IMG/VR virus record: IMGVR_UViG_3300034056_000017
Span: 1 to 58,904 of that record
Length of the DNA stretch: 58,904 bases
Direction: 5' to 3' (one strand)
DNA from: a virus
Taxonomy: Duplodnaviria; Caudoviricetes
Within the stretch, counting starts at the first letter, position 1; the number at the start of each line of letters is the position of its first letter. Both the position numbers and the translations under genes were made by a program. Below the pieces are notes generated by a model. That model saw only the letters and a list, made by a program, of their open reading frames with translations. It ran no database searches and was not told the DNA's origin. Shown here in pieces: positions 3,131-25,081 of this stretch.

Positions 3131-4041
3131 TACAGGAAGTGCAGTATCAGTTCAGCCGTGACGTTGGTGCCGGCGGCAGCCGTGGTCAGGCAGTGTCCAA
3201 CTTCTTTGAAGTGCTCCGTGTCGGAATCAGATCTGAAGATGACCTGATCGACGTACAGCCGGTCTCCCGCCACACCTGCGTCAGCGCCGTAGAGCCGCAC
3301 GCGCATCTCTCCAGCGTTGATCATGTCGGCAGTGATCGCCGCACTGATCACAGTCACGTCGGTCGTCCCGGCTGCGGCCAAGGTGTCGATCAGCACCCAG
3401 CTCCCACCGCCTGCAACGTAGTCCCAGATGCTGATCGTCACACCGGCCGCGCGGTTGGCGCCGAAGTAGCCATTGAACCGGATCTCCGTCGGCGTCTCGG
3501 TCACCCCGGTGAAGATGACCCTGGCGTCGATGCTCGGCGCCCCTGTGGTCCCACCGATGGTCAGCTTCACCCCGTTGTTCAGGCGAGTGTCAGCGATCGT
3601 GCCGCTGATCGTCACACCGTTGGCGGTGTCGTAGGTGATCGATGTCGCCGGGAAGTCCAGGCCCGGCATGTCCTGCGTGATACACCTCCCGGCGGTCGTC
3701 GGTGACAGGCGCACCCAATCGTTCGGTGCTGCCGCGTAGCCGTCCTCCAGGATGAAGGTCGCCTTGCTCCCGGGAACAGTGGTGATCCACGTCGGGTGAC
3801 CGTCCGGCACGCCGTTCTCCGCAACGAAACCGGTAACCACATAGGGGTTCGTCGCGGCAATGAAGCCGCCATCCGATGCGGTGTCAATGTTGACAGCCGT
3901 GCCTTTCACCGACGGGGCTCCGGTCTTGTTGATCAACTGGATGCGCCCCCACGCCGGCAGGGCGTCGTCCTCGATGACGCCGTTGACGCGCAGGTTGAAG
4001 GTGCGATTGTCTTCTACACAGGTGACGTTCATGGGGTCCAT
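3130..4041 (-). CDS. Virion structural/fibre-associated protein
   Basis: 303 aa G/T/A-rich; coupled to neighbours in the tail cluster. Confidence 0.6.
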   Translation of the reverse strand: MDPMNVTCVEDNRTFNLRVNGVIEDDALPAWGRIQLINKTGAPSVKGTAVNIDTASDGGFIAATNPYVVTGFVAENGVPDGHPTWITTVPGSKATFILEDGYAAAPNDWVRLSPTTAGRCITQDMPGLDFPATSITYDTANGVTISGTIADTRLNNGVKLTIGGTTGAPSIDARVIFTGVTETPTEIRFNGYFGANRAAGVTISIWDYVAGGGSWVLIDTLAAAGTTDVTVISAAITADMINAGEMRVRLYGADAGVAGDRLYVDQVIFRSDSDTEHFKEVGHCLTTAAAGTNVTAELILHFL

Positions 4042-4520
4042 CCGCTTTCAATGTCAATGGCGTCAAGCTCTGCCCCGGTTGAGGCCGCCATGATGAGGTC
4101 GAACAGGTCGGACTCGCGGGAGAAGGCGAAGTCGTGCAGCGCCCCCACGGCCTCGAAGAGATCCTTGATCTGCGCCTTGGTCAGCTCACCCAGGCCGGCA
4201 CGCTTGATGGTCTTGCCGGGCTTGTCGGCCAGGTAGTCGAGCGAGGAGGTGAACAGCACCAGGGCTTCCTTGTCGCTCGGGATCAGCTTGCCACCCACGT
4301 CGATGCCGGACTCAGCCACCTTGATGCGCTTGGCCTTGATGCGCTCGATCAGTGCGGCCTTCTCTTTGGCGAGATCCCGCGGCGGCTTGCTGAAGCTCAC
4401 ACCGTCCCACAGGTCGCCAACGTCGGCATGGGTGCCGTCGATCATGCCGGGGAACTGGTCAAGCCGGTCCACCGCCCAGACGGCAACGACGACGCCGTTC
4501 TCTACGATTGCGCCTCTCAT
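4029..4520 (-). CDS. Tail fibre assembly/chaperone protein (DUF4376-like)
   Basis: Directly downstream of the fibre gene; N-term AIVENGVVV...VGDLWDGVSFSKP and C-term ELDAIDIESGW patterns. Confidence 0.7.
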   Translation of the reverse strand: MRGAIVENGVVVAVWAVDRLDQFPGMIDGTHADVGDLWDGVSFSKPPRDLAKEKAALIERIKAKRIKVAESGIDVGGKLIPSDKEALVLFTSSLDYLADKPGKTIKRAGLGELTKAQIKDLFEAVGALHDFAFSRESDLFDLIMAASTGAELDAIDIESGWTP

Positions 4521-6268
4521 ACGATACCCCAGAGGATAGCTTTGCCATCACCACCAGCACCGCCAACACCGGCACCCGTTCCGCCCCCGCCGCCGCCCGG
4601 CTGCGACCCTGCGACACCCGCCGTGGCGTGACCGGCACCACCGTTGCCGCCGAAGATGGAAGTGCCTGGCACAACAAGCAGCGAGTTGTAAACTGAACCG
4701 CCGCCAGCTCCACCGTAAACACTATTCCCAGCGGATGCGCCACCGCCAGCTCCAGCTCCACCGCCACCGCCATAAGCCGAATGACCGCCTATTGTAGATC
4801 CGAGAGGGTAAGCTCCTTGCCCACCACCATACCCGTGATTGTTGATCCCTAGATCGGTTCGTGGTTGCCCACCGTAGGGGGATGTGCCCCCAAGACCAAC
4901 CGACAACGCGCCACCGCCCCCGCCGCCCCCCGCATCTGAAGCGTTCGCAGCGTGTGACCCCCCACCCCCACCATAAGCCGTGATCGCGGTGTATCCTGAC
5001 GCAACATTGAGGACAGTGTTCCCCCCAACGGCCCCAGAACCGGCTGACCCGGCGGCCTTTCCGGCTCCACCTGCCGCAACCGTCAGCGTCTCGCTGGCAT
5101 CGAGCATGGCAACCGGGACGGAGATGGGGACACATGCACCGCCACCGCCGCCGCCGGCTGAATTGGCTAAACTGTTCGCGTTCGCCCCGCCGCCACCGCC
5201 GCCCCGCAGCAGGCCACCGATGCGACTGTAGCCGGAGAGCGGCTTCGTGAAGGTCTGCGCCCCGGCGGTCGTGAACTCTTGGTAGAACGGACTCAGCACC
5301 ACGGTCTTAAAGTTCGACCCGTCACAGACGATCAGCCGCGTCTCCTGCGGCAGGATCGGGAAGGCATCACTCGCCACGCCGTCGATCGTCTCCGCGCCGT
5401 CAGGGTTGAGCGTCACCGGCGTGGCCGCGGTGTTGCGCACGATGCACCACCAGCCGTCGCCCAGTGTGGCCGCGGCAGTGATGGTCTGCGTGAAGGCTGC
5501 CGTGCAGTCGAAGTACTTGCCCTGGTCCGCTGCCGCCCAGATGGTGTTGCTGGAGCGTGCGACGTAGGGGATCTTGTCGGCGGCGACCAGCGCGTTGAGC
5601 TGCGTCTGGATGGCCGATGTGGCGCCGCCCAGGTAGCCGACCTCGGTAGCCGTCGCGGTCGAAGCCGCCAGGCCACCATTGGCATCCGTGACCAACGCCC
5701 GGCTGGCGGTCAGCGCCACGGCCTCCAGCGCCGTACCGGCTGCGTTGACCTGCACCTGGTCGTAGGCGGTGGCCAGGCCGATGCCTAGCTGTTGGAAGTT
5801 AATGCTCCCAGGAGGCGCTCCGGCAGCCACAGCCGCATCGATGTACGCCTTGGTGACGTTGCTCGAGCCGTGGACCTGGCGCCAGTGCGTGCCGTTGTAG
5901 ACCAGCGCCACGACGCAGGACGTGGTGAGGTCACCGAGTGAGACCGGGTAGCCGTCCGCAGTGACGATCGCCTTGACACCGAGGGTGTCGACGTTGACCG
6001 TTGCCGCTCCGGTGTTGGCGTGGTTGGGTAGGAAGCCGATGGCGGCGCCGGCAGCCAGCGCCGTGACACCTTTTTGCGTGGTGACGACGTAGGCGCCAGC
6101 CGACCCGGCGCAGGTGCCGAAGGACACCTTGCCGTCGTAGATCGACGCCTTGGTCGGCAGCAGGTCAAAGGCGGCCTTGAGATCCTTGAACTGATCACGC
6201 ACCGAGGCCGACGTGGCAGGGCTTAGGAACGGGGGATTGAGCGTGTTATTGTAATAGTCGTTGGCCAT
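4517..6268 (-). CDS. Tail fibre protein with glycine-rich C-terminal domain
   Basis: Probable start ATG 6268 (GAGGA RBS); NHANTGAATVNVDTLG fibre motif; long GGGGG repeats. Confidence 0.85.
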   Translation of the reverse strand: MANDYYNNTLNPPFLSPATSASVRDQFKDLKAAFDLLPTKASIYDGKVSFGTCAGSAGAYVVTTQKGVTALAAGAAIGFLPNHANTGAATVNVDTLGVKAIVTADGYPVSLGDLTTSCVVALVYNGTHWRQVHGSSNVTKAYIDAAVAAGAPPGSINFQQLGIGLATAYDQVQVNAAGTALEAVALTASRALVTDANGGLAASTATATEVGYLGGATSAIQTQLNALVAADKIPYVARSSNTIWAAADQGKYFDCTAAFTQTITAAATLGDGWWCIVRNTAATPVTLNPDGAETIDGVASDAFPILPQETRLIVCDGSNFKTVVLSPFYQEFTTAGAQTFTKPLSGYSRIGGLLRGGGGGGANANSLANSAGGGGGGACVPISVPVAMLDASETLTVAAGGAGKAAGSAGSGAVGGNTVLNVASGYTAITAYGGGGGSHAANASDAGGGGGGGALSVGLGGTSPYGGQPRTDLGINNHGYGGGQGAYPLGSTIGGHSAYGGGGGAGAGGGASAGNSVYGGAGGGSVYNSLLVVPGTSIFGGNGGAGHATAGVAGSQPGGGGGGTGAGVGGAGGDGKAILWGIV

Positions 6269-6281
6269 GTCATCCTCAAAG

Positions 6282-6348
6282 GAAAGCCCCGCCACTGTTC
6301 GATTGACTCGATCAGTGAGCGGGGCGTTGTTCCGCGCGACTCGATGTT
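6282..6348 (-). promoter_or_regulatory. Conserved structured leader, copy 1 (upstream of the tail fibre operon)
   Basis: Minus strand CGCGCGGAACA-A-CGCCCCGC...GCGGGGCTTTC; second copy at 32527-32596; candidate promoter TTGATT-N17-TATAGA at 6381-6353. Confidence 0.7.
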
Positions 6349-6377: not shown

Positions 6378-9300
6378 TCAAGGCAATGTGTCCAAGAACT
6401 CGCGGTAGATTACATCCTCTTCCGCTTCGATCGCCCTGATCTCCTTGCGCCGCTGGCTCATCGACTTGGTCGGGTCGTTGCGGATGGTATCGATCAGCTC
6501 ACGCAGCGCCGCGGCGCGCTTCGCCTCGGCCTCTGCGCTCTTGGAGATGTCGATCAGTTCACCGTGCTCGGCGTACAGCTCGTCGGCCACCTCGGTGGCG
6601 CCGCCCTTGTTGGCTGCGCGATACTGCGCCCGGTACTTCTTCGCCTCCGCCTTCGCTTCGTTGAACGCGCGCCGGCTGTCTTGCACCGTGTTCTCCCGAC
6701 GGATGATGTTGACCATCGGCACCTCGGCCTCGGTCACGCTGCCGTTCCACGCCGCGCCGCCATCCATACCGAGGGCGGGGATCGGCGGACCAGCGAAGCC
6801 GTAGACCTGGTCGAGGAACGTGTAGGCGCCACCCATCAGGCTGCGCGCGTAGTGCTTGATCGACTCGGGGGAGACGTCGACCGCACCCTCGTTGAACGGG
6901 CTGCCGCCGGTCGCCTCGTTCAGCCCGGTGGCCACCTTGTCGTACCAGGTGCCGCGGGTGTTGCGCCACATGTTCTGGCTGTCCGGGGTGTCCTCCCTGT
7001 ACTGAGTCGGCTGGATCTTACCGCCGAAGTTGTTCTGGTTGAGCGCCGGAGCCAGGGCGATGTTCAGCGCGGTCGGCAGCATGTTGAACCAGCCAAGGAT
7101 GTTGGCCTCCTCATTGATCGGGTTGCCCACCGGGGAGAAGGCGTCGACGAAGCTGGACGCCAGATTCCATCCGCTCTTCTGGTCGAACTTCCCGTTGACC
7201 GCGTCGTTGACCGCGTAGCCCAGACCGACGAAGAAGCTAAACTCGTAAGGCAGCGGCAGGGTGATCTGACCGCGCTCCTTGTTGGTCGGGTCGGGGAAGA
7301 TCAGGTTGCGGTCCTTGGTGCTGCGCGAGATGATCTCCCACTCGTCGTCATCGTCACCGAGGGCACGCACCAGCTGGGCCGACATGTAGCCGATGGCGGC
7401 CAGCGAGCCGACGGCGCCCCACACCTGCGCCTTGTGCTTGGCGCGGAACATGGCGTAGGAGGCGCGGGTCACGCCCTGGATCGCCGGGTTGAAGAACAGG
7501 TAGAGGGCGGACAGGTTGGCGCCCCACTCACCGCGCTTGTCGAAGTTGAGCGTCACGTTCTTGGCCGCAGCTGCCGACTCGGAACGGGACTTGCCCTCTT
7601 CCACCAGGGTACGGTAGGTGGCCAGCCGGTATGCGTTTTCCGACACGCTGTTCAGCGCCTCGACACTGTCGATGAACCAGCGCGCCGGGGAGTACTTGCC
7701 ACGCCGCGCAGCATTCAGCCCGGAGGCGGCCACGGCCTTGGTGTGAGCGTACATCGGTGACTTACCCTGACGCAGCAGATCGTCACGGGTGCGCTTGTAC
7801 TTCTCCTGCATCCCCATCTCGCGCTGGTACATGGTCGTCATCTTCTCACCGACCTGCTCCAGCGTGCCGAGCCAGGCGGCGCCGGTCGACCCGCCATCGT
7901 TGGTGTACTTGTCCACCCACGGGTCGCTGCGACGGTCGCCCGTGCGCAGGTACGTCAGCAGGCTCTTCACCGCCCTCGGGTAGTTGGCGAGGATCTTACC
8001 AGTCACCGTGATGCCGTAGTCCCCGGTGATGTTGATCGTGCCGGCCAGGGCATCGCGGATCGTGTTACGGATCGTGAATCGCGGATCGTACCCGGTGTAT
8101 GCGCGGGAGAGGAAGTTGTTGATCTGCTTGCCGACGTTCAGGACCGACGCCACCTTCTCGACGCCGACCGCAGTCAGGGAGCCGGCCAACACTTCGTCGT
8201 TGAGCTGGATGCGGACCTGCTTGCCGTTAACGTAGGCGTTGATCTCGTTGGGCTGCAGCATCGGGCTCGACATGAAGACGACCGTGGGGTCGGTGCTCTT
8301 AACGACCTTGTACTCGCTGAACGGCCGACCGCTGGTGGCCATGATCGACTGGATGTGCTGGTGAGCCTGAGTCTGCCCACTGACACCAGGGGAGTCGGGG
8401 AACGCGGCCAGAGGCGTGCCCTGGAAGTAGACCGTGTAGGTTGCGACGTTGCGCACCGAAGGGCGCTTCTGCGGCTTGCCGACGGTGCCCACTGCCGGGT
8501 TGTTGGTCTCGAGCAGCATCTGCGCCACGGAGAGGTTGACCTTGTTCTTCTCGACCGCCCGGTAGGCCATCTCGCGCATGTTGATGATGTTCTCGATTAC
8601 CATCTCGTCGCGCAGCCCGTGACCCATGCGGCGCTTCTGCCGGTTGTTAACCTTCTGCCCCTGGCCGGCGCCGCGGGAGATGGCCTCCTGGTCGCCACGC
8701 ACCGGGACGTAGTAGCCGTAGCTGGTGTCCCATGCGTCCTTGGTGTCCTGGTCGATGAGCCCCTCGCGCAGGAGCAGATCAGCGGTGCCCTTGGTGAACG
8801 CCTGCCACTGGTCCGAGATGCGCTTGAGATCCGTCGAGGCGCCGGAGAGGATGTCGCGTGCGTCGATCACATCGTAGCCGGCGGCCACCGCCGCAGCGAT
8901 CTCAGCGTCGGTGGTGGCGTAGCCGTAGGCCAGCTTGGTCGGGTCGCCGTGCAGCTTCTGTATGGCGGCGTTGGCCTCAGCAGCGTGGCGCGCGAGCAGG
9001 TAGTCGTTGATGTCGTCCAGGGGGATCTTCAGCTTGGCGGCTTCCATCACCAGGGGTGCCACGTCAGTCTCGACGAAGCGCACCAGGCGGTCGGCAACCT
9101 TGCCGTTCATGGTATAGAGCCCACGGGCAGCGTTGGCCAGCTCGGACAGCTGCGTGCCAGTCTCAGTGATCCACTCCTGCAGGGTGGCGACCCGGTTGTA
9201 GCGGTCCTGCACCTTGCGCAGGAACAGCTGCAGGTAGGTCTCCGTCGGCGTGCCATTGGCGTTGAGGCGGCGGGAGGAGTACTTCACAAACTCACCAGGC

Positions 9301-12300
9301 GTCTGCTCGGTGACCCCGATCATCGGCTGCGGCGGGACGACCTTCTCGTTCTGCTTGTTGGCAAAGGCGTCAGCAGCCTCCTGGGTCGGGAAGCGTGCGA
9401 CCGTCTTCGTCCCTTCTCCTTCATTCTTGAAGACAAGGTAGGAGCTGCCACCCTGTTGGGGGACGACGAAGTGATGCCCTTCTGCCTTGCTGTTGGGGAT
9501 GCCCGACATCACAGCGATCTGACCCTTGGCGTACTTGGCGAACATCTTCGGCAGCATGGAGTCGTAGAGGTTCTTGAGCCCTTCGCCACCGACCCTGAGC
9601 CCGTCTCCGGTGATCTCCTTGCCGCCTGACTTACCAAGGTCACGACCCTCGCCAGCGACGATGCTCTTGGCGATCTCCTTGCCGACGACGTCCGCCAGCT
9701 CGTTTGCGGTCAGCCCCTCCTTGGTGATGACCTCCTCGCCGTCCTTCACCGCAGACAGGTCGTAGGTGTCGCCCTTCTTGAAGTACTGGATCGCGTCGAT
9801 CTGCTGCGACAGGTCGTAGCGGTCGGCCTGCTGCTGGCCCGTGGTCCAGGCGACGGCATCGAAGCCCTGCTCCTTGGCAATGGCGATGACCCGTTTCACG
9901 CCGATATCGTAGATGCGCTTGCGCAGCCACTCCGGCATCTGCTCCTGGTTGGCGTCACTCGGCCCCTGCATCTCCTCAACGAAGAGGACGCGCTTGCCGT
10001 CCACCTGGCGCTCGTTGTAGCGGATGCGGACGATGGGGTTATTGATCTCGGAGTATTGGGAGTGACCGTCTTTCCAGTTACCAGTAGCCGGTTTCCAATC
10101 ATAACGACCTGCAATACTTATCACCGTGGTATCTGGCAGCGCGGTCAGAGTTTCTTCTGGGAAATATCCCTCCCCTAGCAAGAATGCTCGCGCTGCCTTT
10201 GCTTCCAGGTCAAAGGGCAGTTTGCTATATTCAGGCGCCGTGACGAAGAACTCCCGGTAGCTGCCCGCGACCGCGCCGGGGAGCGTGTACTGACCGAAGT
10301 GGGTGCGCCGTTCTGCTGTCGGCATCTGTGCGCCAGGCGGGAGGTAGTCGTTGAGATCATCACTGAGGCCGGACAGTTCATTATCATCCAGCACCACGTC
10401 CTCGAACTCGACGCTGTTCGCCTTGACGTGGTCGAGCAGCTCCTGCCTGGCGATCGTCCCGTCCAGCCCGGCGAGCACGTTGTCGATCTCCACCGGGGAG
10501 ACGCCGGCGTTGCGCAGCATGGCCTTGAGGTTGAGCAGCGATGTCTTACCCTGCACCTTCTGCTCGACGACGCGCTCGAGCTTGCTGAAGAAGGGAGTCA
10601 GGGTGCGCATGGAGTAGCGGATGTCGGGGTTCTTCGCGCTGAACTTTCCAGAGTTATGCGTGGCGCTCTTGATGTCCGTCTGGTTGAACGCGATGAAGAT
10701 GTCGGTCGGGTCGTAGACGTCCCCTTGTGACCCGCTGTCCGTCACGTTGCGGATGATGGCGCCGTCGTTACCGTACTTCTGACCTTCTCGGGCAACCATG
10801 TCGGTGGTCAACCCCACGTCGCCAGCCTCTTGCACGCTGGCACCAGGAGTGTTGTCAGCCAGTTCGTCGGCCTCATCCTTGGTCAGAACTCCGCGACCAT
10901 CATCGGCATAAACGGGGTCGCCGTCCTGGTCGACAACTTCCCACTGGTCATGCCGGGAGCCGTCCCAGTTGGCTCCTTCAAAGTCTTCTTCGTTCGGGTT
11001 GCGGATGTTGAGGAAGACCTCGTAGATGCCCCGCTGCCCCTCTTCGTCGAAGTCGCTGATCGACTCACCGCGACCGGAGTATGTGCGAGCTGTTGTGCGG
11101 TCAGGGGTGAAAAAGAACGCACCCTTGACCTTGCCGTCACGGCTGTCGAACTCCGTGAAGCCCCCGTCGGTCGTCCCATGATAGACCACCAGCGGCTCGC
11201 CGTTCTCGTCGACCACCTTGGAAACGGACTTCTCGGTGTCGGCCCAGACGCCGCCCTTCATGGTAGCGAACTTCTCCCAATCCCCAAACCATTTCTTGAA
11301 GGCCGGCGTGCGCACCATGGCGTGCTGCTCGGGGGAGAGGTTGGACGGCTTGCCGTTGGGGGCAAGAGGGCGGCTGCTGTACCGGACCCCCTCGCCCTCG
11401 CTGAAGTCTCCGTTGTTCTCGACCGACTTGATGTCCGCCGGATCCCAGATGGCGACGGCGTCTTCAAACTTCTGATCCCAGACACCGGACCAGCCTTCCG
11501 CCTTGGCCGCAGCCTCTGCGCCTTCCCAACCGTGCTTGCTGATGTACTCCGACCACTTGGTGTTGCCCATGTACTTGCCCCGGGCGTAGAGCGCCATGAC
11601 GATCTGGCCGCCTTTGCCGGCGCCATCGTACCCTTCAGCCACATCACGGTCGGGGGAGGTGTAGACCGCCGGTCCCATCGCGCCGATCTTGCTGCGGCGG
11701 AAGGCGTCGATCTTTTTGTCGGTGCCGTGGTAGAGCACCATCGGGGAGCCGTCCTCGTTGACGAGGTTGCTCTCCTTGGCGTTGAACCACGCTTTGAACT
11801 CGGGGGTGTTGGTCAGATCGCGGGAGGAATATTTTACAGGCTGTTGTACTTCTTGGCTTCCGGTGTCGGGTTCGCCCCGAAGAACTCCTCGAAGACTCTG
11901 TCCTCGATCTCCTGGGAAGTCTCGAAGGTAGACGCTTCCTTCAACAGGGACTGGCGTTTCTCCTCTTGCGATGTCGTTGTCGTACCAGGTTGCGGTTTCA
12001 TGGGAACCTCCTTTCGACACCAATGTAGCAAAGTTCTGTGCCGACTGCAAGCCAATTCGTATGATATTGTATGGCGGAACCAAACGCCCCGTGAGTTCGT
12101 GTCTGGTAACCGCGCGGTCGATGGCCTTCTCTGCCGGGAGGTCGACGTAGTGCAGATGCACCGTGTAGCCCTTCTCCTTGAGGAGATCGATGCGAGCCTG
12201 CAAGGAGGCGGGGTTATCTCCGACCATTGGGTAAACGATGTTGTCACCGTTGGTCAGGGCGCGCACCATCACGGACGCCGTGATCTTGGAACTCTCCTCA

Positions 12301-15300
12301 TGCACCGAGCTGGCGCCGAAGCCATTGCGGAAGCCCCACAGCTTCTCCTTGGCCGCGTCCGGGTCGATCAGCAGGGCACCGTGCTTCGCGACCAGGGGGT
12401 CGGCGACAGTGGACTTCCCCGATGCAGGCAGACCGAGAATCAGGTCAGCACGACGATCCTTATTCTTCGCCCCCTCACCGTAGAGAAGGGTCTTGATCCG
12501 GCCACGGTGCAGCCAGCGCAGCGGCGTGTCGATCAGGTGCGTCTTTGGGAGTTTCTCCGCTTCAGAGACCAGTTCGAGAATCTTGGTCGGGATTCGCGCC
12601 TCAAGCTCGGCATCGCTGAGGATGCGACTGCTCGCCTTCACGTCAGCGTTACGCAGGTCGCTCCCGGCCAGCGCCTCCTGTCCTGCGTTCGGATTGGCCT
12701 TGATCTCGTCGGCAACCTTCTTGACGAAGGCGGTGTCCGGCTTGATGTTGCGGCCACCGTTGGCGACGTACTCGTCAAGCTGGGCCTTCATCTCGTCCAT
12801 GTTGATCTGGGACGGATCGGCCACATCGAACGCGGTGTCGGTGCGCGCGTAGTCCTTGCGCAGCTTGGCGAAATTGGGGTTGATGTCCTTCCACTCGATC
12901 TTGCCCTTGACCATCTCCTGCCACTTGGTCTTGGCTTCCTTCGCGGACGTGATCCCCTTGAACATGAACTGCGGGAAGACCGGGAGGATGTTGCGCTCCT
13001 TGCACAGCTCGAGATACGCCCGGGTGGTCTGCTCCGTGGTCTTGCCCTTGTCCCCGGCGAACTCCTGCATGATCGTCTTGCGGTCGAGCTTCTTCTCATC
13101 CAGACTCTTCTCGTTCTGAGTCCCCGTCAAGTTCTTCCAGTTCAGCGCATCATTATAGAACACCTTCGGCATCCCTGACGCATGGAACGGGATGATGTAG
13201 TCGATCCACTCCTGCGCGAGCGCCCACTCGGTCATTGCGTCGGAGGTGGTGACCATGATCACGCCAGCGTTGGGGTGTTTGTCACGCAGATCCTGGGCTT
13301 CCTTCCAGTCCATCCCCATGTGCGCGTCCGCCTTGAACGTCCCGTCCTCTTGCTCGACGGCGAACACCGACATGTTGATCTTGATCCCGGTCTTGCCGAA
13401 GATCTTCACGAACGCTGGATGCTTGGTGTAGGCGTGGGTGCGCATCCCGACAGCATAGGTGTCGACGATCGCCTGCCACAGGTCGAACACATGCTCGATC
13501 TGGAAGTCAGATGTGGAGAAGATACGCAGTCCCGCCCGGCGATTGATCCAGTCGAGGAACGTGACCTTCTCCCCGTTCTCGCGGATCGTTGCTTCAGCCT
13601 GCTTGAGGATCTGGCCGGCGTAATCGGTGTACATCTTCACCGCGTTCTGTGAGGACGACGCCTGTGCCTTGTTGCGGGCCCAGGCGTAGATCTCGGGGAA
13701 CTTCTGTTCGTGCTTGGACTGTCCCTCATCCGTCAGGAACGGCATCAGATCGAACTCGGACGCCTTGAAGCCCTGCTCCCGCGCCTTCTCGATCATCGCC
13801 TTGTCAGCATCGTAGGTCCGACGCTTGGCAGCGACAGCAGCATCGAGCGACCCGTGAGCGGTGATCTCCTTCTTGGTCGGCTTGCCGGGCTGCTTCAGCT
13901 CAACCGTTCCTCCAAGAACCCCGGCGTACCGGGCAACCTCTGCCACGAATATACGGCGCGGAGACTCGACGTAGCAATAGACGCAGGGTGCCTCCTTACC
14001 GGCCTCCCGCATTCTGATCACCATGAGCATCGCATCACCTGCGGTCGGCGCGCGGTCAAGCACCCGGTACAGTTCGATGAGGTTGGCACCATACTCAAGC
14101 CGCTTGATGCAGGACGATGCGAGGTCCAGAGACTTGATGTAGAGCACAGTATCGTTGTTGTTGCGCAGCGGGTTGCCCTTCTTCCACTCGATGTTGTGCG
14201 GGAAGAGATCCTTGACGTTGTCGAGCAGCTCGGCCAGCGCCTTCATCTCGCGGACGTTGTCGACGATCTTCTTGCGGCGCGACTTCGGGACCGTCGGCAG
14301 AGTCTTGTCAAGCTCCGCCGACCACTCGTTTATCGTGCGTGCCGAGTAGACGACCGGCCCCGGTGAGACGATGCCGCTCTCGACGGCTGGTGACTCGGTC
14401 ACCCCTTGACGCTCCATGGCGTAGTCAGCAACCGCCTTGGCGAGGATGGCGCGGACCTTCCTGGCGTCGGTGACGAATGATGCACGATAGGCAAAATCAT
14501 CTGCATTGACGAACTTCGAAATCAGGGAGTCGATCCAGGCGACAATCTTCTGCGACAGGGACTGAAACTTGTCAGCACCCATGTTCGCTTCAACCTGGGT
14601 CCAGAAGTCGGCGTTGTCGAAGTTGTTGCCGAGGATGTCTGCGATCTGCTCCTCGATGTCACCGCCGACCCGAGACTGATACTCCTTGGAACGGAGCAAC
14701 GGCTTGAGTGCGGATTCGAGAGCCGAGTAGAGTTTGGGGTTGTCGTTCTTGAGGAGATGGAGGATTTCGTGACCGAAGACGACGTTGAACTTCACGTCGG
14801 TACGAACATCAATGAAGACGGTGTCACCCATCTTCAGGTAGACCAGACCGTTGTCGGTGATCTTACCCGCGGTGTCACCCTTGCGCTGAAGAGTGCCGAA
14901 GACTACCTTTTTCCCGAAGACCTTGCCGAGGAATCTTGCGAGGTCCATACTCGACCGCGTGCCAGAGCTGCGTACAGCATCGCCGCCTCGTCCGCTTCCT
15001 CGCGCGTCAGACTGCCCTCCTCGATCTGACGCAGTTGCATCGTCAGACAGACCCTGCTGAAGTGCGGCTCCTCCTTGTGCTCCAGCAGATGCCGGCGCCT
15101 GGCCTCCTTGTGCAGCAGCTTGTCCTTGTCCCTCGACGACAGATCCAGTTGCAGAATCTCTTGGTACAAGAGGGGTAAAGGTAATCCCCGTTGCCTTTTG
15201 GAGAGTGTCGGCAATGCCCCGGTTTGAATCATCGATCTGCCATTCTTTGTTGAGAAGGTCTTGTGTCTCATCATCAAGCATAGCACCTTTGTCGATCGGT

Positions 15301-17429
15301 GCAACCTTGGCCGAGTAGGCGACCGTCTGCTGCTTCTTGAGAGCCGTTCTGATCGCGGTGGCGGTCTTGGCATTCGGCACGCTGGTCGAGCCATCCTGTG
15401 CCACCAGGCTCAACTTGCCGGCGGCATCCTGCACGACAACCTGCCCGTCGAGACCAGGAACGGTGAAGGCGGTCCCACCGAGGGACTGCACGGTGGTCTG
15501 CTGCGGAGACGCTGCCGGCTCGAGCGGAGCCGGCGTCGTCCCTACTTCTTCTTGCCCCCGCCCTTGCACTTGCCCATTGACATCACCCCCTAGCCCTTCA
15601 TCTCCTTGCGGCTCCTGCCGCACGTCGGACACTTGCGCTTGTCCCGGCTGATCTGCTTCCCGCACTGGCACTTCATTGGTGGTCTGCTCCTTGGGTTGAA
15701 GGATGAAGCCGCCGTCAACGGCGACCACGTCGTGGCTATCCTGCAGGCGGCGGTAGGACCGCACCCGGGTGGCTGCCGCCTCGTCGGCGTAGATCTTCGG
15801 TTGCCCGGTGGCGGCATCCGTATTGTCGAACGTCGGAGCTGCAGCTGGCGCGGTGCTGGTCGCCGTGCCCCCGTAGACGCTCTCGATCAGCGACTCGTCG
15901 GTCAGCTGCGACACGTCATCGTTGGTCGTCTCGCTGGTGCCGTCGGGGAAGGTGAAGGTTGCGCCACCGTTCTCGTTGCGCGTCACGGTCACCGTGGCGC
16001 CATCGTTCACACCACCGGTGAGCGTGTAGCCAGGGTCAGCGACAGGCGACACGGGGGCGACAGTCGCTTCAGTGTCGCCTGTCGCCGGCAGGTCGACACC
16101 GAGGTTCTCGGCGGTCTGCTCGAACTCGTTGTAGGTGTCCTGGTTCCACTCGGAGGCCGCCGGCGTGCTCACGGCCTCGGCAGCCGCAGCGATGGCGTCG
16201 TCGACGCTGGTGGCCGCCGTGACGTCGGGCGGCGGGGTGACGGGAGCGGGGCCGGAAGGCGACCACCCGGGCACACCACGATACATCCGCTCCAGCGATC
16301 CGGCGGCGGACAGGTTCTCTTGAGTGTCGTCAAGAGTTTTCCGTGCGTCCGGCGACATTGCGTCATATTCCGCACGCCGGCGCCGGATCTCTTCGATCTG
16401 CTCAGGAGACTGCAGAATACCCCTGGCAGTCTCCATCGTTTTACCGGCAGCACCAAACATCCCGGTCTGCACAAGCGTCTGCAGAGCAGTCTCCCTGGCG
16501 TCCTTGCTGGCGTTGTAAGTGCGATCCCCGACCTTAATGTCGCTGGTGTCGAGCATGGTTCCAGACGCCCATGCGACAAGCGTCTCACCGGTGTACTGCA
16601 GCGCCTTGCTTGTACTATCGGGGTCATCCGATGTGATGATGTCCGCAACATTCTGGATGAGGGTCGTCGGAAGCTCGGTCATCTCCTCGACACCAAAGTA
16701 CTCGAAGGTCCGGCGCAGCACGCTCTTGGCGCTCTGACTGTTGAACAGGTCGAAGAACTTGGCAGCAGGGATCGTCTCAAACCCGGCCTCAGCAATGCCG
16801 GCGATCACACCCTCGACCGCAGCAGCACCCTTGCTCTTTCCTTCAATCGCCCTGGCTTCGCCGTAGGTGTCACCGGCCGTGCGCAGGCCCATCGACCCGA
16901 GCATGCCGACAGGACCGAGCGCCATCCCCGGTGCCATGAAACCGGTCGACTCGACGGCGCCAGAGACGAGCTTGCCGGTCTCGGACGTCAGTGGATACTG
17001 TGCATCAAGTGACTTGCGATCTTGCTCAAGTTTGCGCAGGTCTTGGATGGCACTCTCGGCATCGATCGGGACGACCGGACCTTCCGAGTTTTCTTTGACA
17101 TATCCCGGTGCGAACTCCGACGTCAGGAGGTTGAGAGACGCCTCGCTGCGCTCGAGCCCCTGCGTGAACTGTTCAGGAGCCCTGGCAATGATGTTGGGAA
17201 CATCCCGCAGGAAGTTCCCCTCCATCCGATCCTCCGGCGCAGCGATTCCCATGACGTCGCGCTGAGAGCCAGCGGTGCCGGGGTTCCACTCTGCATAGTT
17301 GTCGGGAAGATTCGGATCCTGTGGGTTCCACGACGCATCAAGCCCAACCGGCGCTTCCTCCTCTGCATCAAACTGATCAAAGAAGTTGGCGCCGGTTTGC
17401 TCGTCAAACTGGTCAAAGAAGTTGGCCAT
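6378..17429 (-). CDS. Giant polyvalent virion/ejection protein (3683 aa): HExxH metallopeptidase, Cys-rich unknown module, zeta-toxin-like P-loop kinase, two ART-PolyVal-like domains, LPD38-like C-terminus
   Basis: GHEILH at ~14755-14775; PCVYCYVES; GLPASGKS plus IDPDAAKEKL...HEESS at ~12290-12434; FKAWF...PMVLYHGT and FKKWFGDWE...PLVVYHGT; C-terminal NFDKRG...LYLFFNPAIQG...LPLPYEF; located after the ejection-protein genes. Confidence 0.9.
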   Translation of the reverse strand: MANFFDQFDEQTGANFFDQFDAEEEAPVGLDASWNPQDPNLPDNYAEWNPGTAGSQRDVMGIAAPEDRMEGNFLRDVPNIIARAPEQFTQGLERSEASLNLLTSEFAPGYVKENSEGPVVPIDAESAIQDLRKLEQDRKSLDAQYPLTSETGKLVSGAVESTGFMAPGMALGPVGMLGSMGLRTAGDTYGEARAIEGKSKGAAAVEGVIAGIAEAGFETIPAAKFFDLFNSQSAKSVLRRTFEYFGVEEMTELPTTLIQNVADIITSDDPDSTSKALQYTGETLVAWASGTMLDTSDIKVGDRTYNASKDARETALQTLVQTGMFGAAGKTMETARGILQSPEQIEEIRRRRAEYDAMSPDARKTLDDTQENLSAAGSLERMYRGVPGWSPSGPAPVTPPPDVTAATSVDDAIAAAAEAVSTPAASEWNQDTYNEFEQTAENLGVDLPATGDTEATVAPVSPVADPGYTLTGGVNDGATVTVTRNENGGATFTFPDGTSETTNDDVSQLTDESLIESVYGGTATSTAPAAAPTFDNTDAATGQPKIYADEAAATRVRSYRRLQDSHDVVAVDGGFILQPKEQTTNEVPVREADQPGQAQVSDVRQEPQGDEGLGGDVNGQVQGRGQEEVGTTPAPLEPAASPQQTTVQSLGGTAFTVPGLDGQVVVQDAAGKLSLVAQDGSTSVPNAKTATAIRTALKKQQTVAYSAKVAPIDKGAMLDDETQDLLNKEWQIDDSNRGIADTLQKATGITFTPLVPRDSATGSVVEGQGQAAAQGGQAPASAGAQGGAALQQGLSDDATASDRGGQSDARGSGRGGDAVRSSGTRSSMDLARFLGKVFGKKVVFGTLQRKGDTAGKITDNGLVYLKMGDTVFIDVRTDVKFNVVFGHEILHLLKNDNPKLYSALESALKPLLRSKEYQSRVGGDIEEQIADILGNNFDNADFWTQVEANMGADKFQSLSQKIVAWIDSLISKFVNADDFAYRASFVTDARKVRAILAKAVADYAMERQGVTESPAVESGIVSPGPVVYSARTINEWSAELDKTLPTVPKSRRKKIVDNVREMKALAELLDNVKDLFPHNIEWKKGNPLRNNNDTVLYIKSLDLASSCIKRLEYGANLIELYRVLDRAPTAGDAMLMVIRMREAGKEAPCVYCYVESPRRIFVAEVARYAGVLGGTVELKQPGKPTKKEITAHGSLDAAVAAKRRTYDADKAMIEKAREQGFKASEFDLMPFLTDEGQSKHEQKFPEIYAWARNKAQASSSQNAVKMYTDYAGQILKQAEATIRENGEKVTFLDWINRRAGLRIFSTSDFQIEHVFDLWQAIVDTYAVGMRTHAYTKHPAFVKIFGKTGIKINMSVFAVEQEDGTFKADAHMGMDWKEAQDLRDKHPNAGVIMVTTSDAMTEWALAQEWIDYIIPFHASGMPKVFYNDALNWKNLTGTQNEKSLDEKKLDRKTIMQEFAGDKGKTTEQTTRAYLELCKERNILPVFPQFMFKGITSAKEAKTKWQEMVKGKIEWKDINPNFAKLRKDYARTDTAFDVADPSQINMDEMKAQLDEYVANGGRNIKPDTAFVKKVADEIKANPNAGQEALAGSDLRNADVKASSRILSDAELEARIPTKILELVSEAEKLPKTHLIDTPLRWLHRGRIKTLLYGEGAKNKDRRADLILGLPASGKSTVADPLVAKHGALLIDPDAAKEKLWGFRNGFGASSVHEESSKITASVMVRALTNGDNIVYPMVGDNPASLQARIDLLKEKGYTVHLHYVDLPAEKAIDRAVTRHELTGRLVPPYNIIRIGLQSAQNFATLVSKGGSHETATWYDNDIARGETPVPVEGSVYLRDFPGDRGQSLRGVLRGEPDTGSQEVQQPVKYSSRDLTNTPEFKAWFNAKESNLVNEDGSPMVLYHGTDKKIDAFRRSKIGAMGPAVYTSPDRDVAEGYDGAGKGGQIVMALYARGKYMGNTKWSEYISKHGWEGAEAAAKAEGWSGVWDQKFEDAVAIWDPADIKSVENNGDFSEGEGVRYSSRPLAPNGKPSNLSPEQHAMVRTPAFKKWFGDWEKFATMKGGVWADTEKSVSKVVDENGEPLVVYHGTTDGGFTEFDSRDGKVKGAFFFTPDRTTARTYSGRGESISDFDEEGQRGIYEVFLNIRNPNEEDFEGANWDGSRHDQWEVVDQDGDPVYADDGRGVLTKDEADELADNTPGASVQEAGDVGLTTDMVAREGQKYGNDGAIIRNVTDSGSQGDVYDPTDIFIAFNQTDIKSATHNSGKFSAKNPDIRYSMRTLTPFFSKLERVVEQKVQGKTSLLNLKAMLRNAGVSPVEIDNVLAGLDGTIARQELLDHVKANSVEFEDVVLDDNELSGLSDDLNDYLPPGAQMPTAERRTHFGQYTLPGAVAGSYREFFVTAPEYSKLPFDLEAKAARAFLLGEGYFPEETLTALPDTTVISIAGRYDWKPATGNWKDGHSQYSEINNPIVRIRYNERQVDGKRVLFVEEMQGPSDANQEQMPEWLRKRIYDIGVKRVIAIAKEQGFDAVAWTTGQQQADRYDLSQQIDAIQYFKKGDTYDLSAVKDGEEVITKEGLTANELADVVGKEIAKSIVAGEGRDLGKSGGKEITGDGLRVGGEGLKNLYDSMLPKMFAKYAKGQIAVMSGIPNSKAEGHHFVVPQQGGSSYLVFKNEGEGTKTVARFPTQEAADAFANKQNEKVVPPQPMIGVTEQTPGEFVKYSSRRLNANGTPTETYLQLFLRKVQDRYNRVATLQEWITETGTQLSELANAARGLYTMNGKVADRLVRFVETDVAPLVMEAAKLKIPLDDINDYLLARHAAEANAAIQKLHGDPTKLAYGYATTDAEIAAAVAAGYDVIDARDILSGASTDLKRISDQWQAFTKGTADLLLREGLIDQDTKDAWDTSYGYYVPVRGDQEAISRGAGQGQKVNNRQKRRMGHGLRDEMVIENIINMREMAYRAVEKNKVNLSVAQMLLETNNPAVGTVGKPQKRPSVRNVATYTVYFQGTPLAAFPDSPGVSGQTQAHQHIQSIMATSGRPFSEYKVVKSTDPTVVFMSSPMLQPNEINAYVNGKQVRIQLNDEVLAGSLTAVGVEKVASVLNVGKQINNFLSRAYTGYDPRFTIRNTIRDALAGTINITGDYGITVTGKILANYPRAVKSLLTYLRTGDRRSDPWVDKYTNDGGSTGAAWLGTLEQVGEKMTTMYQREMGMQEKYKRTRDDLLRQGKSPMYAHTKAVAASGLNAARRGKYSPARWFIDSVEALNSVSENAYRLATYRTLVEEGKSRSESAAAAKNVTLNFDKRGEWGANLSALYLFFNPAIQGVTRASYAMFRAKHKAQVWGAVGSLAAIGYMSAQLVRALGDDDDEWEIISRSTKDRNLIFPDPTNKERGQITLPLPYEFSFFVGLGYAVNDAVNGKFDQKSGWNLASSFVDAFSPVGNPINEEANILGWFNMLPTALNIALAPALNQNNFGGKIQPTQYREDTPDSQNMWRNTRGTWYDKVATGLNEATGGSPFNEGAVDVSPESIKHYARSLMGGAYTFLDQVYGFAGPPIPALGMDGGAAWNGSVTEAEVPMVNIIRRENTVQDSRRAFNEAKAEAKKYRAQYRAANKGGATEVADELYAEHGELIDISKSAEAEAKRAAALRELIDTIRNDPTKSMSQRRKEIRAIEAEEDVIYREFLDTLP
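11834..12001 (-). CDS. Nested +1-frame ORF (55 aa) right after the zeta-toxin-like domain; candidate antitoxin
   Basis: AAAGGAGG 5 nt before ATG 12001; MKPQPGTTTTSQEEKRQSLLKEASTFETSQEIEDRVFEEFFGANPTPEAKKYNSL; stop lies in the PVKYSSR linker codons. Confidence 0.65.
   Translation of the reverse strand: MKPQPGTTTTSQEEKRQSLLKEASTFETSQEIEDRVFEEFFGANPTPEAKKYNSL
14903..15274 (-). CDS. Nested +1-frame ORF (~109-123 aa, helical) just upstream of the HExxH domain
   Basis: Alt frame reads like a globular helical protein (LLYQEILQLDLSSRDKDKLLHKEARRRHLLEH...LTREEADEAAMLYAALARG) while the host frame is G/Q/A/S low-complexity; AAAGGTG 9 nt before ATG 15274; alternative ATG at 15232. Confidence 0.55.
   Translation of the reverse strand: MMRHKTFSTKNGRSMIQTGALPTLSKRQRGLPLPLLYQEILQLDLSSRDKDKLLHKEARRRHLLEHKEEPHFSRVCLTMQLRQIEEGSLTREEADEAAMLYAALARGRVWTSQDSSARSSGKR
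15542..15577 (-). CDS. Nested +1-frame basic micro-peptide MGKCKGGGKKK
   Basis: Follows the nested Zn-ribbon ORF; GGGGGTG RBS-like sequence upstream. Confidence 0.35.
   Translation of the reverse strand: MGKCKGGGKKK
15590..15676 (-). CDS. Nested +1-frame 28-aa Zn-ribbon peptide MKCQCGKQISRDKRKCPTCGRSRKEMKG
   Basis: AAGGAG 10 nt before ATG; CxC-x10-CxxC. Confidence 0.55.
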   Translation of the reverse strand: MKCQCGKQISRDKRKCPTCGRSRKEMKG

Positions 17430-19657: not shown

Positions 19658-20146
19658 TCACACCTCCCGAATGAACACGGTCTCCAGCGGCTTGTAACCG
19701 CGCCGCCGCATGACCACGCTCATTGATTCATAGTTGTCATCCATCTTGGCGCCGGAGTAGATGACCCCGGCTCGATTACGTTTGGCCCACTGCTCCCAGG
19801 CCGTCAGCAGGTTCAGCGACCTGCGCCCCCGGTGCTCCGGCAGGACGAACCAAAAGACCTGCTGCGCTGCCCTGACACCGCGATTCATGTACATGGGGAG
19901 CAGGAAGCCAGCGATACCGCCGACGATCTCCCCCTCATGCTCCAGCACCATCACCACTCCATCGTGTCGCTCGATCAGCTCCAGGATCGTCTGCTCCAAC
20001 GACGCCTCGTCGTAGGGGAAGTAGCCTGGCAGGATCGTGTGATCGAAGAACCGGCGACCCTTGATCGCCATCTCCTCGGCCTCCTCAGGCAGCGCCAGGC
20101 GCACGCCGCGCGGGAGACCCATCACCGATGCGAGGTCGGAGATCAA
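19658..20146 (-). CDS. GNAT-family acetyltransferase
   Basis: EGEIVGGIAG...QVFWFVLPEHRGRRSLNLL...RRGY GNAT motifs. Confidence 0.8.
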   Translation of the reverse strand: MISDLASVMGLPRGVRLALPEEAEEMAIKGRRFFDHTILPGYFPYDEASLEQTILELIERHDGVVMVLEHEGEIVGGIAGFLLPMYMNRGVRAAQQVFWFVLPEHRGRRSLNLLTAWEQWAKRNRAGVIYSGAKMDDNYESMSVVMRRRGYKPLETVFIREV

Positions 20147-23614: not shown

Positions 23615-24303
23615 ATCATGCTGCTCCCACGCTGGACAGGCGGCGTATGTTCGAACAACATCCTGGTGAGGAACTTACTGTAGCCGGACTTGCCGATCTC
23701 GATCTGCTCCTGCGCGACTTCGAAGAGCCCGTACTTGACCATGGCCCCGTAGACGACGACCAGGTGATGCTTGCTCGGGAAGATCGGCTCGTCGGCGTCA
23801 GCACTCAGCTCATGCGGCGAGCGGAAGTATTCGGCCACGATGGTGTAGTCGTCGTTGGGGATCGGCCAGAACATGAGCGCCTTGTCGGCCGGGCGGATGG
23901 TCATGTAGAGAGGCCGCCCCTGCACCGAGCGTTGCGTGCTGTACAGGTAGCGGTCCCGGAAGTCAGAGTAATCCATATACTGCGGCAGCATGATCTCGTT
24001 GCCGACGCCAGCCGAGGTCAGGTAGCCGCGGAACGAGTCGAACCGCCAGTTGCCGAAGTCGGAAACATCGATGTCCAGCCCGGTGCCTACCGTGTAGGCT
24101 TGCTGGGCTGCGACCGTGCTGAAGGTCTTGTCCTTCCGCATGAAGTCCCAGTCGTGGCGCTCGAGCTGGACATCGACGTAAGCCTGTGCGATCCAGTCCT
24201 TCAGACGCTTCTGTTCCTTGACCAGTCCGACGACAGTCGTAATGTCGGCACCAGAGATGCCGCATTCTTGCTTCAGTCGGTTAACCAACTGCAGAAACGT
24301 CAT
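23611..24303 (-). CDS. Head-tail adaptor (tail tubular A-like)
   Basis: Start MTFLQLVNRL at 24303; WDFMR and FWPIPNDDYTI...DEPIFP motifs. Confidence 0.75.
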   Translation of the reverse strand: MTFLQLVNRLKQECGISGADITTVVGLVKEQKRLKDWIAQAYVDVQLERHDWDFMRKDKTFSTVAAQQAYTVGTGLDIDVSDFGNWRFDSFRGYLTSAGVGNEIMLPQYMDYSDFRDRYLYSTQRSVQGRPLYMTIRPADKALMFWPIPNDDYTIVAEYFRSPHELSADADEPIFPSKHHLVVVYGAMVKYGLFEVAQEQIEIGKSGYSKFLTRMLFEHTPPVQRGSSMI

Positions 24304-25022
24304 GATGTGACTCCTCGCTTTTTCAAACCAAGCGCCTCTTCCAATGACCAACCGCGCGACAGTCTCCAAGATAGTGTTACTTTGTTGACCCCGTACTTTT
24401 CAGCCAATTGCGTCTGGTTCATTACAACACCATCAAACGTGAGAAGGTTCTGGACAGATCGTGCTTTATGTGACATTGGCACGTCCCGGTAAATTCGCTG
24501 CCTCACAATATCTTCTGTCAAACTGTACTTCACAGCAAGCTCTTTTACAGATAGACCTTCCAGCACCATCGTACAACGTTTGTTATCGTTTTGCCTGCTC
24601 TTCGGTAACCATGTACAGTTCTCTTTCGAGTAGCCACCGTTGACGTCCAACCGCTCAATCGTCATGCCCTCATCTGGTTCCCCCATGTCCTCATAAAACA
24701 ATGTGACGTCGTGCCACCTGTCACAAACTTTTATGCCCCGCCCTCCGTAATGATGATAGTTCCTGTCCCTCGGATTCCCGCACCTAGACATCATGTTGCG
24801 CCAAACTCCGTAACATCTAAGATGCGAAATGCTGTGAGTTCTTGCACCAATTCTGACACATCCGCAAGAGTGCTGCCTTTTTACATTCGCCCCGTTTATG
24901 ACAGTCATTCTTCCACATTCACACAAACAGCGCCAGCAAGCTCTCCCGCGAATGTCACTTCCCGCTCGTTCAACGATTGTGAGCATCCCGTAAACCTGAC
25001 CGATGAGATCTGAGGTAGCCAT
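24300..25022 (-). CDS. Free-standing HNH-type homing endonuclease
   Basis: DLIGQVYGMLTIV...WRCLCECG, YGGRGIKVCDRW, TIERLDVNGGYSKENCTW, C-terminal HTH repeats; lower GC; AAGGAG RBS. Confidence 0.85.
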   Translation of the reverse strand: MATSDLIGQVYGMLTIVERAGSDIRGRACWRCLCECGRMTVINGANVKRQHSCGCVRIGARTHSISHLRCYGVWRNMMSRCGNPRDRNYHHYGGRGIKVCDRWHDVTLFYEDMGEPDEGMTIERLDVNGGYSKENCTWLPKSRQNDNKRCTMVLEGLSVKELAVKYSLTEDIVRQRIYRDVPMSHKARSVQNLLTFDGVVMNQTQLAEKYGVNKVTLSWRLSRGWSLEEALGLKKRGVTS

Positions 25023-25051
25023 GGTGCGTCTCCTTTTATTGGAATTGCACC

Positions 25052-25080
25052 ATTGTATCGTATCTGTAACGGTCAGTCCA
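25052..25080 (-). promoter_or_regulatory. Candidate sigma70 promoter for the HNH gene
   Basis: TGGACT-N17-TACAAT on the minus strand. Confidence 0.5.
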
Positions 25081-25081
25081 C

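Follow-up and report, generated by a model that had tools for sequence, protein, structure and literature searches.

Organization of the locus

The DNA analysed here, referred to as the window, is the complete 58.9-kb virus record IMGVR_UViG_3300034056_000017 (58,904 nucleotides, Duplodnaviria; Caudoviricetes), the GC content of which is approximately 60%. It encodes a giant protein, P0001, which includes a zeta-toxin-like kinase module. At the 3' end of the DNA encoding this module lies a short open reading frame (ORF) in the +1 frame, nested within the host ORF. Sequence comparisons indicate that this ORF is a gene under selection, found together with the zeta-like module in many phages, and structural modelling predicts that its product binds the kinase. 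The features considered are the following.

6378..17429, minus strand: giant polyvalent-protein gene P0001, a single ORF of 3683 aa
11943..12557, minus strand: folded zeta-toxin-like P-loop kinase module, P0001 residues 1625 to ~1829
12007..12014, minus strand: Shine-Dalgarno sequence AAAGGAGG, 5 bases upstream of the nested ATG, in host codons K-G-G
11834..12001, minus strand: nested +1-frame gene, 55 codons plus TAA, member of a conserved nested small-protein family
11832..11936, minus strand: G/R/E-rich linker in the host frame, P0001 residues 1832-1866, sharing its DNA with the putative binding part of the peptide
11837..11920, minus strand: peptide residues 28-55, acidic, aromatic and helical, predicted by the complex model to touch the kinase
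11820..11840, minus strand: module-border motif PVKYSSR, which holds the stop codon of the nested gene

The host codons K-G-G-S-H-E read AAAGGAGG TTCCC ATG, and the ATG (12001-11999) begins one base into the His codon, i.e., in the +1 frame. The nested TAA (11836-11834) overlaps the V-K codons of PVKYSSR. In these particulars, the sequence agrees with a preliminary description of the same DNA, which had reported the AAAGGAGG-N5-ATG within the KGGSHE codons, the 55-codon +1 ORF and its stop in PVKYSSR.

Judged from the window alone, the nested ORF is unremarkable. The P0001 gene, in which the GC content at third codon positions (GC3) is 0.81, contains 10 ATG-started +1 ORFs of at least 55 codons, and the nested ORF is the shortest among them. 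Two copies of AAAGGAGG are present in the window (1.14 expected), a number reached in 30 of 100 shuffles. The only outlier at this level is the 8-base Shine-Dalgarno match (P 0.004 given the host protein). Real genes of the phage feature AAGGAG or GGAGG 5-9 bases before the start, and the Shine-Dalgarno sequence of the nested ORF is equal or better. Relatives are needed to decide, because the GC-rich window alone yields such an ORF by chance.

Conservation of the nested ORF in homologous loci

Relatives of the kinase module were found in 103 proteins, with 30-50% identity, inside other giant proteins. Starting from an alignment of ten modules (A1), 102 loci with a tblastn match (80 viral and 22 genomic) were fetched, 95 of which could be anchored on the conserved TGRLV motif. 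Loci in which the match ends short of the anchor residue (L028, L101, L067, L068, L070, L074 and L077) were left out, as was L090, which is too short downstream. The main test comprised the remaining 94 loci and the window, grouped in 64 clusters at 70% host identity, and asked whether an ATG at host offset 22-32 opens a +1 ORF of 50 or more codons. Since a hydrophilic linker lacks T at second codon positions and thereby keeps the +1 frame open on its own, chance was estimated with two null models that keep the host protein. In the first, synonymous codons were resampled from the codon usage of each locus; in the second, synonymous codons were permuted locally.

The resampling null proved well calibrated when applied to the remainder of these ORFs (132,147 nt), where 77 +1 ORFs were found versus 65.4 expected, and 3 +2 ORFs versus 3.3 expected. 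The preliminary description had suggested that each toxic cassette may carry its own immunity gene; this generalization is not sustained by the +1 count, which refers to the flanking ~1.5 kb of the same host ORFs.

Most loci carry an ATG-started +1 ORF of 51-76 codons, located 24-28 codons past the anchor, as in the window. The placement also holds in genomes of 30-45% GC, and the +2 frame is almost always closed. By the strict criterion, the nested ORF is present in 40 of the 64 clusters, versus 7.59 expected by codon resampling (sd 2.27; P 9e-33) and 6.22 expected by local codon permutation (P 5.8e-38). When only clusters with GC3 <0.5 are considered, the ORF is found in 23/39, versus 2.36 expected. 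Some loci (L030, L023, L019, L033, L024, L035 and L085) carry it despite a chance of 0.001-0.017. The median length of the ORF in the 40 clusters is 62.5 codons.

The start codon is conserved as well. The nested ATG requires T, not C, at a synonymous host position, and is kept in 49 of the 53 clusters in which host residues permit it, versus 34.0 expected (P 1.7e-7). In 36 of the 40 clusters, the ORF is preceded by a Shine-Dalgarno match of 4 bases or more. The preliminary description had proposed a search of zeta-module homologues for a conserved ribosome-binding site and +1 ORF; the ORF was recovered, together with a modest enrichment of the Shine-Dalgarno match. A +1 stop is located at most 10 codons upstream of the ATG in 34/40 clusters (median 3.5); therefore, the frame is entered by initiation, and not by slippage from upstream.

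Constraint in the overlap, also among the checks proposed at that stage, was found in the substitution pattern of the host frame. The third-position substitution rate, measured over all close pairs, is 0.320 in the kinase core and drops to 0.144 within the overlap. Among 8 independent pairs, the share of substitutions hitting third positions is 57% in the core (496/870) and 36% in the overlap (128/357; Fisher P 1.5e-11). Frame and start are kept beyond what the host protein imposes, and host synonymous change is reduced where the two genes overlap.

The small ORF is fully nested, with the host ORF continuing beyond it, in 36/40 clusters. In the other four (L017, L043, L053 and L083), the host ORF stops inside the small ORF, which continues alone and sometimes reaches the start of the next gene. 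In one cluster, formed by L012, L013, L014 and L086, the +1 ORFs start at 2096 and are twice as long (107-130 aa); they feature an extra C-terminal helical part, and are still wholly contained within the host ORF.

The peptides encoded by these ORFs are related to each other. The window peptide scores 19.7 bits against a profile built from the other peptides, a value reached by none of 1000 synonymous resamples (maximum 10.3) and by none of 1000 shuffles (maximum 10.7). On this sequence evidence, the window copy is a member of the family. Searching 1.84 billion representative proteins with a profile of 36 peptides retrieved 15 gene-called proteins of 58-104 aa (E<=0.001). Eleven of them match from their own first residue, and 8 of these from profile position 1. 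A word-indexed search of 5.8 billion proteins returned a single family member. One gene-called protein, P0110 (104 aa), starts in the kinase host frame, in the region of the GRLVP motif, and continues in the frame of the nested peptide; it could be a frameshifted copy, a natural fusion or the result of a sequencing error.

Taken at the level of the family, the nested gene is very probably real. It is apparently unreported: no description of such a nested gene was found in full-text searches of the literature, exclusive of supplementary files, nor in the available portions of PMC5512222 and PMC5576092.

Loci lacking the nested ORF

In some of the loci that fail the strict criterion, such as L032, L034 and L009, the nested ORF is displaced by an insertion. 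Among the loci without a nested ORF, the family profile detected no copy in another frame or at another position. A tblastn search among cultured phages matched 22 phage records, all with <60% identity, and no carrier was found among the 3 of these 22 records that were inspected. Halovirus HCTV-1 (L106), an archaeal virus, encodes a zeta toxin domain protein, gp109, and features a 39-codon acidic +1 ORF ~250 nt past the kinase core. This ORF overlies a G/R-rich host linker, a similar theme, and may be due to chance in GC-rich DNA. Close relatives of the window itself were found neither by blastn against phages and plasmids, nor in viral and metagenome contigs searched with a single-protein query.

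Sharing of the DNA by the two frames

The overlap consists of two parts. The first ~22 nested codons overlie the folded and conserved end of the host module (P0001 residues 1810 to ~1829) and encode a Ser/Thr-rich peptide head. In this proximal part, the host frame is better conserved, with an identity of 0.344 versus 0.274 for the +1 frame. The other 33 nested codons overlie the G/R/E-rich host linker, and encode an acidic aromatic helix followed by a short second helix. In the host model, the predicted local distance difference test (pLDDT) score is <50 for model residues 208-226, which correspond to P0001 residues 1832-1850 and to the end of the model; in the host alignment of 50 modules, the G/R-rich linker continues to residue 1866. 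The preliminary description had stated that the host frame degrades over the stretch shared with the nested ORF. This holds for the distal ~35 codons; the segment from residue 1810 to ~1829, in contrast, is folded and conserved.

A GGRGQ-type motif of the host linker is conserved in relatives, and the same DNA encodes a conserved W-E-D-E-D motif in the peptide. As read from the alignments, each frame is cheap where the other is expensive. The notion that +1 is the better-conserved frame in the distal overlap found no support (identity 0.184 versus 0.201 for the host frame), neither frame being clearly ahead there. The notion that the +1 peptide is a frameshifted remnant of a host linker was also discarded. 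In blastp comparisons with the 102 homologous giant proteins, the peptide gave weak and scattered matches (best E 0.022), and the host-frame stretch was matched at the expected place.

The kinase module

The module features a Walker A motif (GLPASGKS, within LILGLPASGKS), an IDPD motif (within IDPDAAKEKL) and the HEESS helix, all noticed in the preliminary description, and its assignment is confirmed by Pfam. The Zeta_toxin family (PF06414) matches P0001 residues 1659-1805 with E 2.8e-14 and 53.5 bits, versus a cut-off of 22.3; a six-frame search gave 59.2 bits, and the Pfam match spans positions 12455-12015. The AlphaFold2 model of the module has a pLDDT of 82.2 and is ordered to approximately residue 205 of 226. 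Foldseek ranks 1-8 are zeta and PezT chains, with query TM-scores (TMq) of 0.65-0.71 and E down to 7e-10. The best matches were zeta (3q8x/1gvn, TMq 0.70), PezT (0.65) and AvrRxo1 (4z8t, 0.60). All three closest folds have been crystallised with a small protein partner.

In the alignment with zeta, GLPASGKS corresponds to GQPGSGKT, the Walker A Lys being present, and IDPD corresponds to IDND. The second Asp falls on zeta Asp67, described as the catalytic base in the available text of PMC3062530. The residues described there as binding UDP-N-acetylglucosamine (UNAG, or UDP-GlcNAc) are Thr118, Arg120, Glu100 and Thr128. In the profile alignment, Thr118 is replaced by Val and Glu100 by Ala in the window, and the Arg120 position is occupied by Lys in the family consensus and by Asp in the window. 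According to the same part of PMC3062530, a Thr-to-Val exchange in PezT at the position equivalent to zeta Thr118 results in a nontoxic variant. P0001 residues 1737-1739 (12212-12220, minus strand) read G-D-N. Most aligned relatives feature G-K-T, and the counterpart in zeta is the substrate loop Gly119-Arg120-Thr121. With this G-D-N loop, the kinase of the window may act on a different substrate or be less active. In sequence comparisons, Pnkp1, a polynucleotide kinase (E 4.6e-10), and zeta (E 1.4e-8) are equally close to the module, which may possibly be no UDP-GlcNAc kinase at all.

Predicted binding of the peptide to the kinase

The model of the peptide alone has helices at residues 8-42 and 47-53, and its confidence is low (pLDDT 64.5). 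Sequence searches of the peptide against Pfam, PHROGs and the PDB, 36 peptides being covered in the case of Pfam, returned nothing above threshold. Two matches to Unstab_antitox (E 0.0066 and 0.34), both below the 23.3-bit cut-off, were rejected as noise; the former involves residues 26-53 of the L012 peptide, and not its extra C-terminal part. No sequence or profile similarity was detected between the nested peptide and either epsilon or the C-terminal domain of PezA.

The complex was predicted using the 226-aa module with alignment A1 and the 55-aa peptide with alignment A2. The latter includes 36 of 42 distinct peptides; 20 loci, in which the longest ATG-started ORF does not begin at the conserved place, were set aside. 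Three runs gave ipSAE scores of 0.81, 0.83 and 0.83, versus 0.00, 0.02 and 0.00 in the controls; a model of the domain with the peptide had been among the checks proposed in the preliminary description, and its outcome favours predicted binding. The ipSAE mark, reached by 58 of 80 solved complexes and by 2 of 110 mismatched pairs, is approximate, as self-made alignments were used here. The runs agree in at least 85% of contacts, and the pLDDT of the partner is at least 72.

In the model, peptide residues 28-55 touch module residues 15-23 in the N-terminal helix, 44 at the edge of the P-loop, and 66, which lies between Asp65 and Asp67. Further contacts involve residues 83-99 (the HEESS helix), 111-125 and 164-168. 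In the profile alignment, module residues 94 and 111-115 correspond to zeta Glu100 and Gly117-Thr121, a region which, in the available text of PMC3062530, binds UDP-GlcNAc; the contacted residues 86-99 fall on the zeta helix that holds Glu100. In the same source, epsilon is described as blocking the ATP site of zeta, the second (acceptor) site being left free, and the accessible part of PMC4963854 places the epsilon interface in zeta fragments 8-25, 43-58, 67-75 and 149-165. The predicted footprint has the N-terminal helix in common with that of epsilon, and borders the P-loop and Asp67. It lies instead mainly on the acceptor side; hence, the predicted mode is no simple copy of a solved complex. 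Based on the model, the peptide probably binds the kinase over its acceptor-substrate/active-site face. The linkage of the two partners is strict, as kinase and peptide share the same DNA, whatever domains flank the module.

Genomic context of the giant gene

P0001 lies within a late structural gene block on the minus strand, flanked by tail-like genes and with the portal and major head genes upstream of it. The following neighbours were assigned using PHROGs.

30269-32563, minus strand: portal
26745-27821, minus strand: major head protein
23611-24369 and 4517-6295, minus strand: tail proteins
4029-4520, minus strand: tail-fibre-like gene

Pfam domains identified in P0001 are ART-PolyVal (two copies), LPD38 and Zeta_toxin. 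P0001 is very large, contains several conflict-type domains and is encoded with virion genes; by these sequence features, it qualifies as a polyvalent protein as understood by Iyer et al. 2017 (PMC5512222), and would be packaged into the virion. In the accessible text of that report, zeta-like kinases in polyvalent proteins are noted once, and the term 'overlapping' does not occur.

The motif [VI][KR]YS[SAM]R is found in six copies in P0001, at residues 1028, 1599, 1867, 2017, 2272 and 2717. Because of the positions of the Pfam domains, these copies are assigned to module borders: before the kinase, before each ART-PolyVal, after the second ART-PolyVal and before the conserved C-terminal 950 aa. 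By its sequence and position, the motif could be cut by a protease, as a processing site, or act as a joint at which recombination shuffles modules.

Longer ATG-started +1 ORFs overlie both ART-PolyVal modules (11258-11644, minus strand, 128 codons; 10883-11179, minus strand, 98 codons). They are expected by chance in such GC-rich DNA. The structural gene block also contains an HNH endonuclease gene (24300-25115, minus strand; PHROG E 3e-55) and an acetyltransferase-like gene (19658-20146, minus strand; E 2e-15).

Discussion

As a whole, the results are best explained by a real nested gene, the product of which docks on the kinase and likely restrains it; we assign to this reading a probability of roughly 0.55. 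Ribosomes would initiate at the gene's own AAAGGAGG-N5-ATG on the late mRNA. The product would be a small acidic helical protein, the N-terminal third of which would be Ser/Thr-rich filler over the folded end of the kinase, and the C-terminal two-thirds of which would be written over the disordered linker of the host. The C-terminal part is predicted to dock on the acceptor-substrate face of the kinase, at the P-loop, the catalytic Asp-x-Asp and the HEESS helix. The most likely effect would be that the kinase is kept off in the producing cell while virions are built. Being non-covalent, the inhibitor would not accompany the giant protein on its ejection into the next host. Inhibition of the kinase during virion production is the best-supported mechanism, and the chances that it is correct are about even.

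A broader proposal is more tentative. The module may be a dual-coding mobile cassette, in which an enzyme used as an injected weapon carries the blocker of its own active site; stripping of the blocker at exit from the capsid would arm the kinase only in the next host. The cassette would have originated from a kinase gene followed by a small gene. Probably, the start of the small gene crept into the 3' end of the kinase gene, and the kinase stop was lost, so that read-through produced the disordered linker. The four clusters in which the host ORF ends inside the small ORF are read as survivors of this origin. Because kinase and partner share the same DNA, they would be inseparable when modules are shuffled between polyvalent proteins.

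Several observations weigh against the nested-inhibitor reading. In the window alone, with the host protein fixed, an ATG that opens 50 or more codons at this place arises with a probability of 0.381 under codon resampling and 0.594 under local codon permutation. Among the relatives, 24/64 clusters lack the nested ORF by the strict criterion. The preliminary description had named homologues without the ORF as grounds for refutation; such homologues exist, next to the 40 clusters that have it. In an 11-locus Oscillospiraceae cluster, no ATG at the conserved offset opens a +1 ORF of 50 codons or more, and the 27-31% identical domains of Phrappuccino, Bacteroides phage DAC19 and HCTV-1 have no family ORF at the equivalent place. 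Enrichment of the Shine-Dalgarno match is modest (Fisher P 0.019), and in the distal overlap the +1 frame scores higher than the host frame in 253 of 528 pairs. The window peptide has no Pfam family and matches no antitoxin family, and its best PDB profile match (E 0.27) is an unrelated P450. The complex score is the model's own confidence, and may have profited from solved complexes in which toxins of this fold are bound to a partner. The module is at most a putative toxin, with Val at the zeta Thr118 site, GDN for GKT and a sequence as close to Pnkp1 as to zeta. The antitoxin idea put forward in the preliminary description survives in part: a selected gene, the product of which is predicted to bind over the active-site face, was found, while the kinase that it would neutralise carries the Val which makes the PezT equivalent nontoxic.

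A real nested gene with a different function, such as that of a kinase cofactor or activator, of a chaperone for folding or packaging of the giant protein, or of an unrelated factor acting, e.g., in timing, is the alternative that survives best, although we regard it as rather unlikely. All the evidence of selection on the ORF fits it equally well, the complex model gives the position of the peptide and not its effect, and the peptide is unlike any known antitoxin. However, the predicted contacts, on the edge of the P-loop, on the Asp-x-Asp and on the helix and loop of the acceptor site, are where a blocker is expected; the three closest folds are kinases restrained by, or solved with, a small protein partner; and the ORF is strictly linked to the zeta module whatever the flanking domains.

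The conserved elements could also act without a separately initiated protein, either by promoting +1 frameshifting, which would yield a shortened kinase with an alternative tail, or at the RNA level. Shine-Dalgarno-like sequences can stimulate frameshifting, as in the case of prfB, and in one gene call, P0110, the host frame runs on into the +1 frame. Nevertheless, this is highly improbable, given the +1 stops closely preceding the ATG, the retention of the ATG itself and the gene-called copies that match from their first residue; RNA structure, moreover, would not hold a frame open for ~60 codons across genomes of 30% to 68% GC. Least probable of all is a chance ORF, in which the +1 frame stays open owing to GC-rich DNA and a hydrophilic linker, and conserved host dipeptides such as D-G, Y-E or H-E spell ATG: the window-only probabilities, the ten such ORFs of the P0001 gene, an octamer not enriched in the window and a null P(ATG) already high in many loci would all suit it, but it is contradicted at the family level, where host-preserving nulls predict 6-8 clusters and 40 are seen, including loci with very low chance values, and where third-position suppression and profile similarity exceed what the host frame imposes.

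The nested-inhibitor reading finds parallels in known systems. In epsilon/zeta and PezA/PezT, as here, a zeta-fold P-loop kinase is bound beside its nucleotide site by a small helical protein, the binding and the helices being predicted in our case. The predicted footprint overlaps in part the zeta fragments 8-25, 43-58 and 67-75 that the available text of PMC4963854 assigns to the epsilon interface. In contrast, the partner is encoded here inside the kinase coding DNA, in the +1 frame and at the 3' end, and there by a separate upstream gene. It is ~55-65 aa long and has no detectable similarity to epsilon or PezA, and it is predicted to contact mainly the acceptor-substrate helix and loop, which remain unoccupied by epsilon (PMC3062530, in its available part). 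The kinase itself differs from zeta, as it is one module of a 3683-aa virion protein and has not kept the UNAG-binding Thr118 and Arg120.

AvrRxo1, the third-best structural group, is described in the accessible text of PMC5491322 as a structural homologue of zeta toxins that phosphorylates NAD. AvrRxo1-ORF1:ORF2 similarly comprises a zeta-like kinase that is delivered to another cell and made with a small binding protein. There, however, the partner is a separate adjacent gene, and a plant pathogen delivers the kinase by type III secretion. The AvrRxo1 partner and the nested peptide were not found to be related in sequence. MuF polymorphic toxins of temperate phages are also comparable, since a head-associated multidomain toxin protein is adjoined by a very short gene without a family. 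In MuF systems, the small ORF follows the toxin gene, whereas here it is nested out of frame, with the host ORF continuing in 36/40 clusters; the word zeta does not occur in the MuF toxin paper.

In phage lambda, the Rz/Rz1 pair consists of a gene wholly embedded in the +1 frame of another, and the two products act together. These are lysis proteins (spanins), in contrast to an enzyme and its binder, and the comparison implies no kinship in sequence or fold. Separate small genes for toxin and antitoxin are not required either in a covalently linked system, which we take to be EzeT, an E. coli zeta toxin with a cis-acting antitoxin domain. There, the inhibitor is encoded in the same frame and resides in the same chain; here, it would be a separate chain from a second frame. 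A type II system that joins toxin and antitoxin covalently in one polypeptide is described in the available text of PMC4826407.

The nested pair is best filed as a toxin-immunity or toxin-antitoxin pair in nested, dual-coding form. If the reading is correct, a binder gene would be concealed, throughout a whole family, in another frame of the enzyme module that its product binds, within a virion-delivered multi-domain protein. Gene callers miss the nested family almost completely, as 1 member was found in 5.8 billion proteins and 15 in 1.84 billion representatives. The small natural peptide is predicted to block zeta-fold kinases at the acceptor site, unlike epsilon, which acts at another site. 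What looks like an inter-module 'linker' in a polyvalent protein can be the shadow cast by a second gene, and the arrangement may possibly answer how a phage builds a toxic cargo enzyme in a cell that it still needs, and how shuffled toxin modules keep their antidotes.

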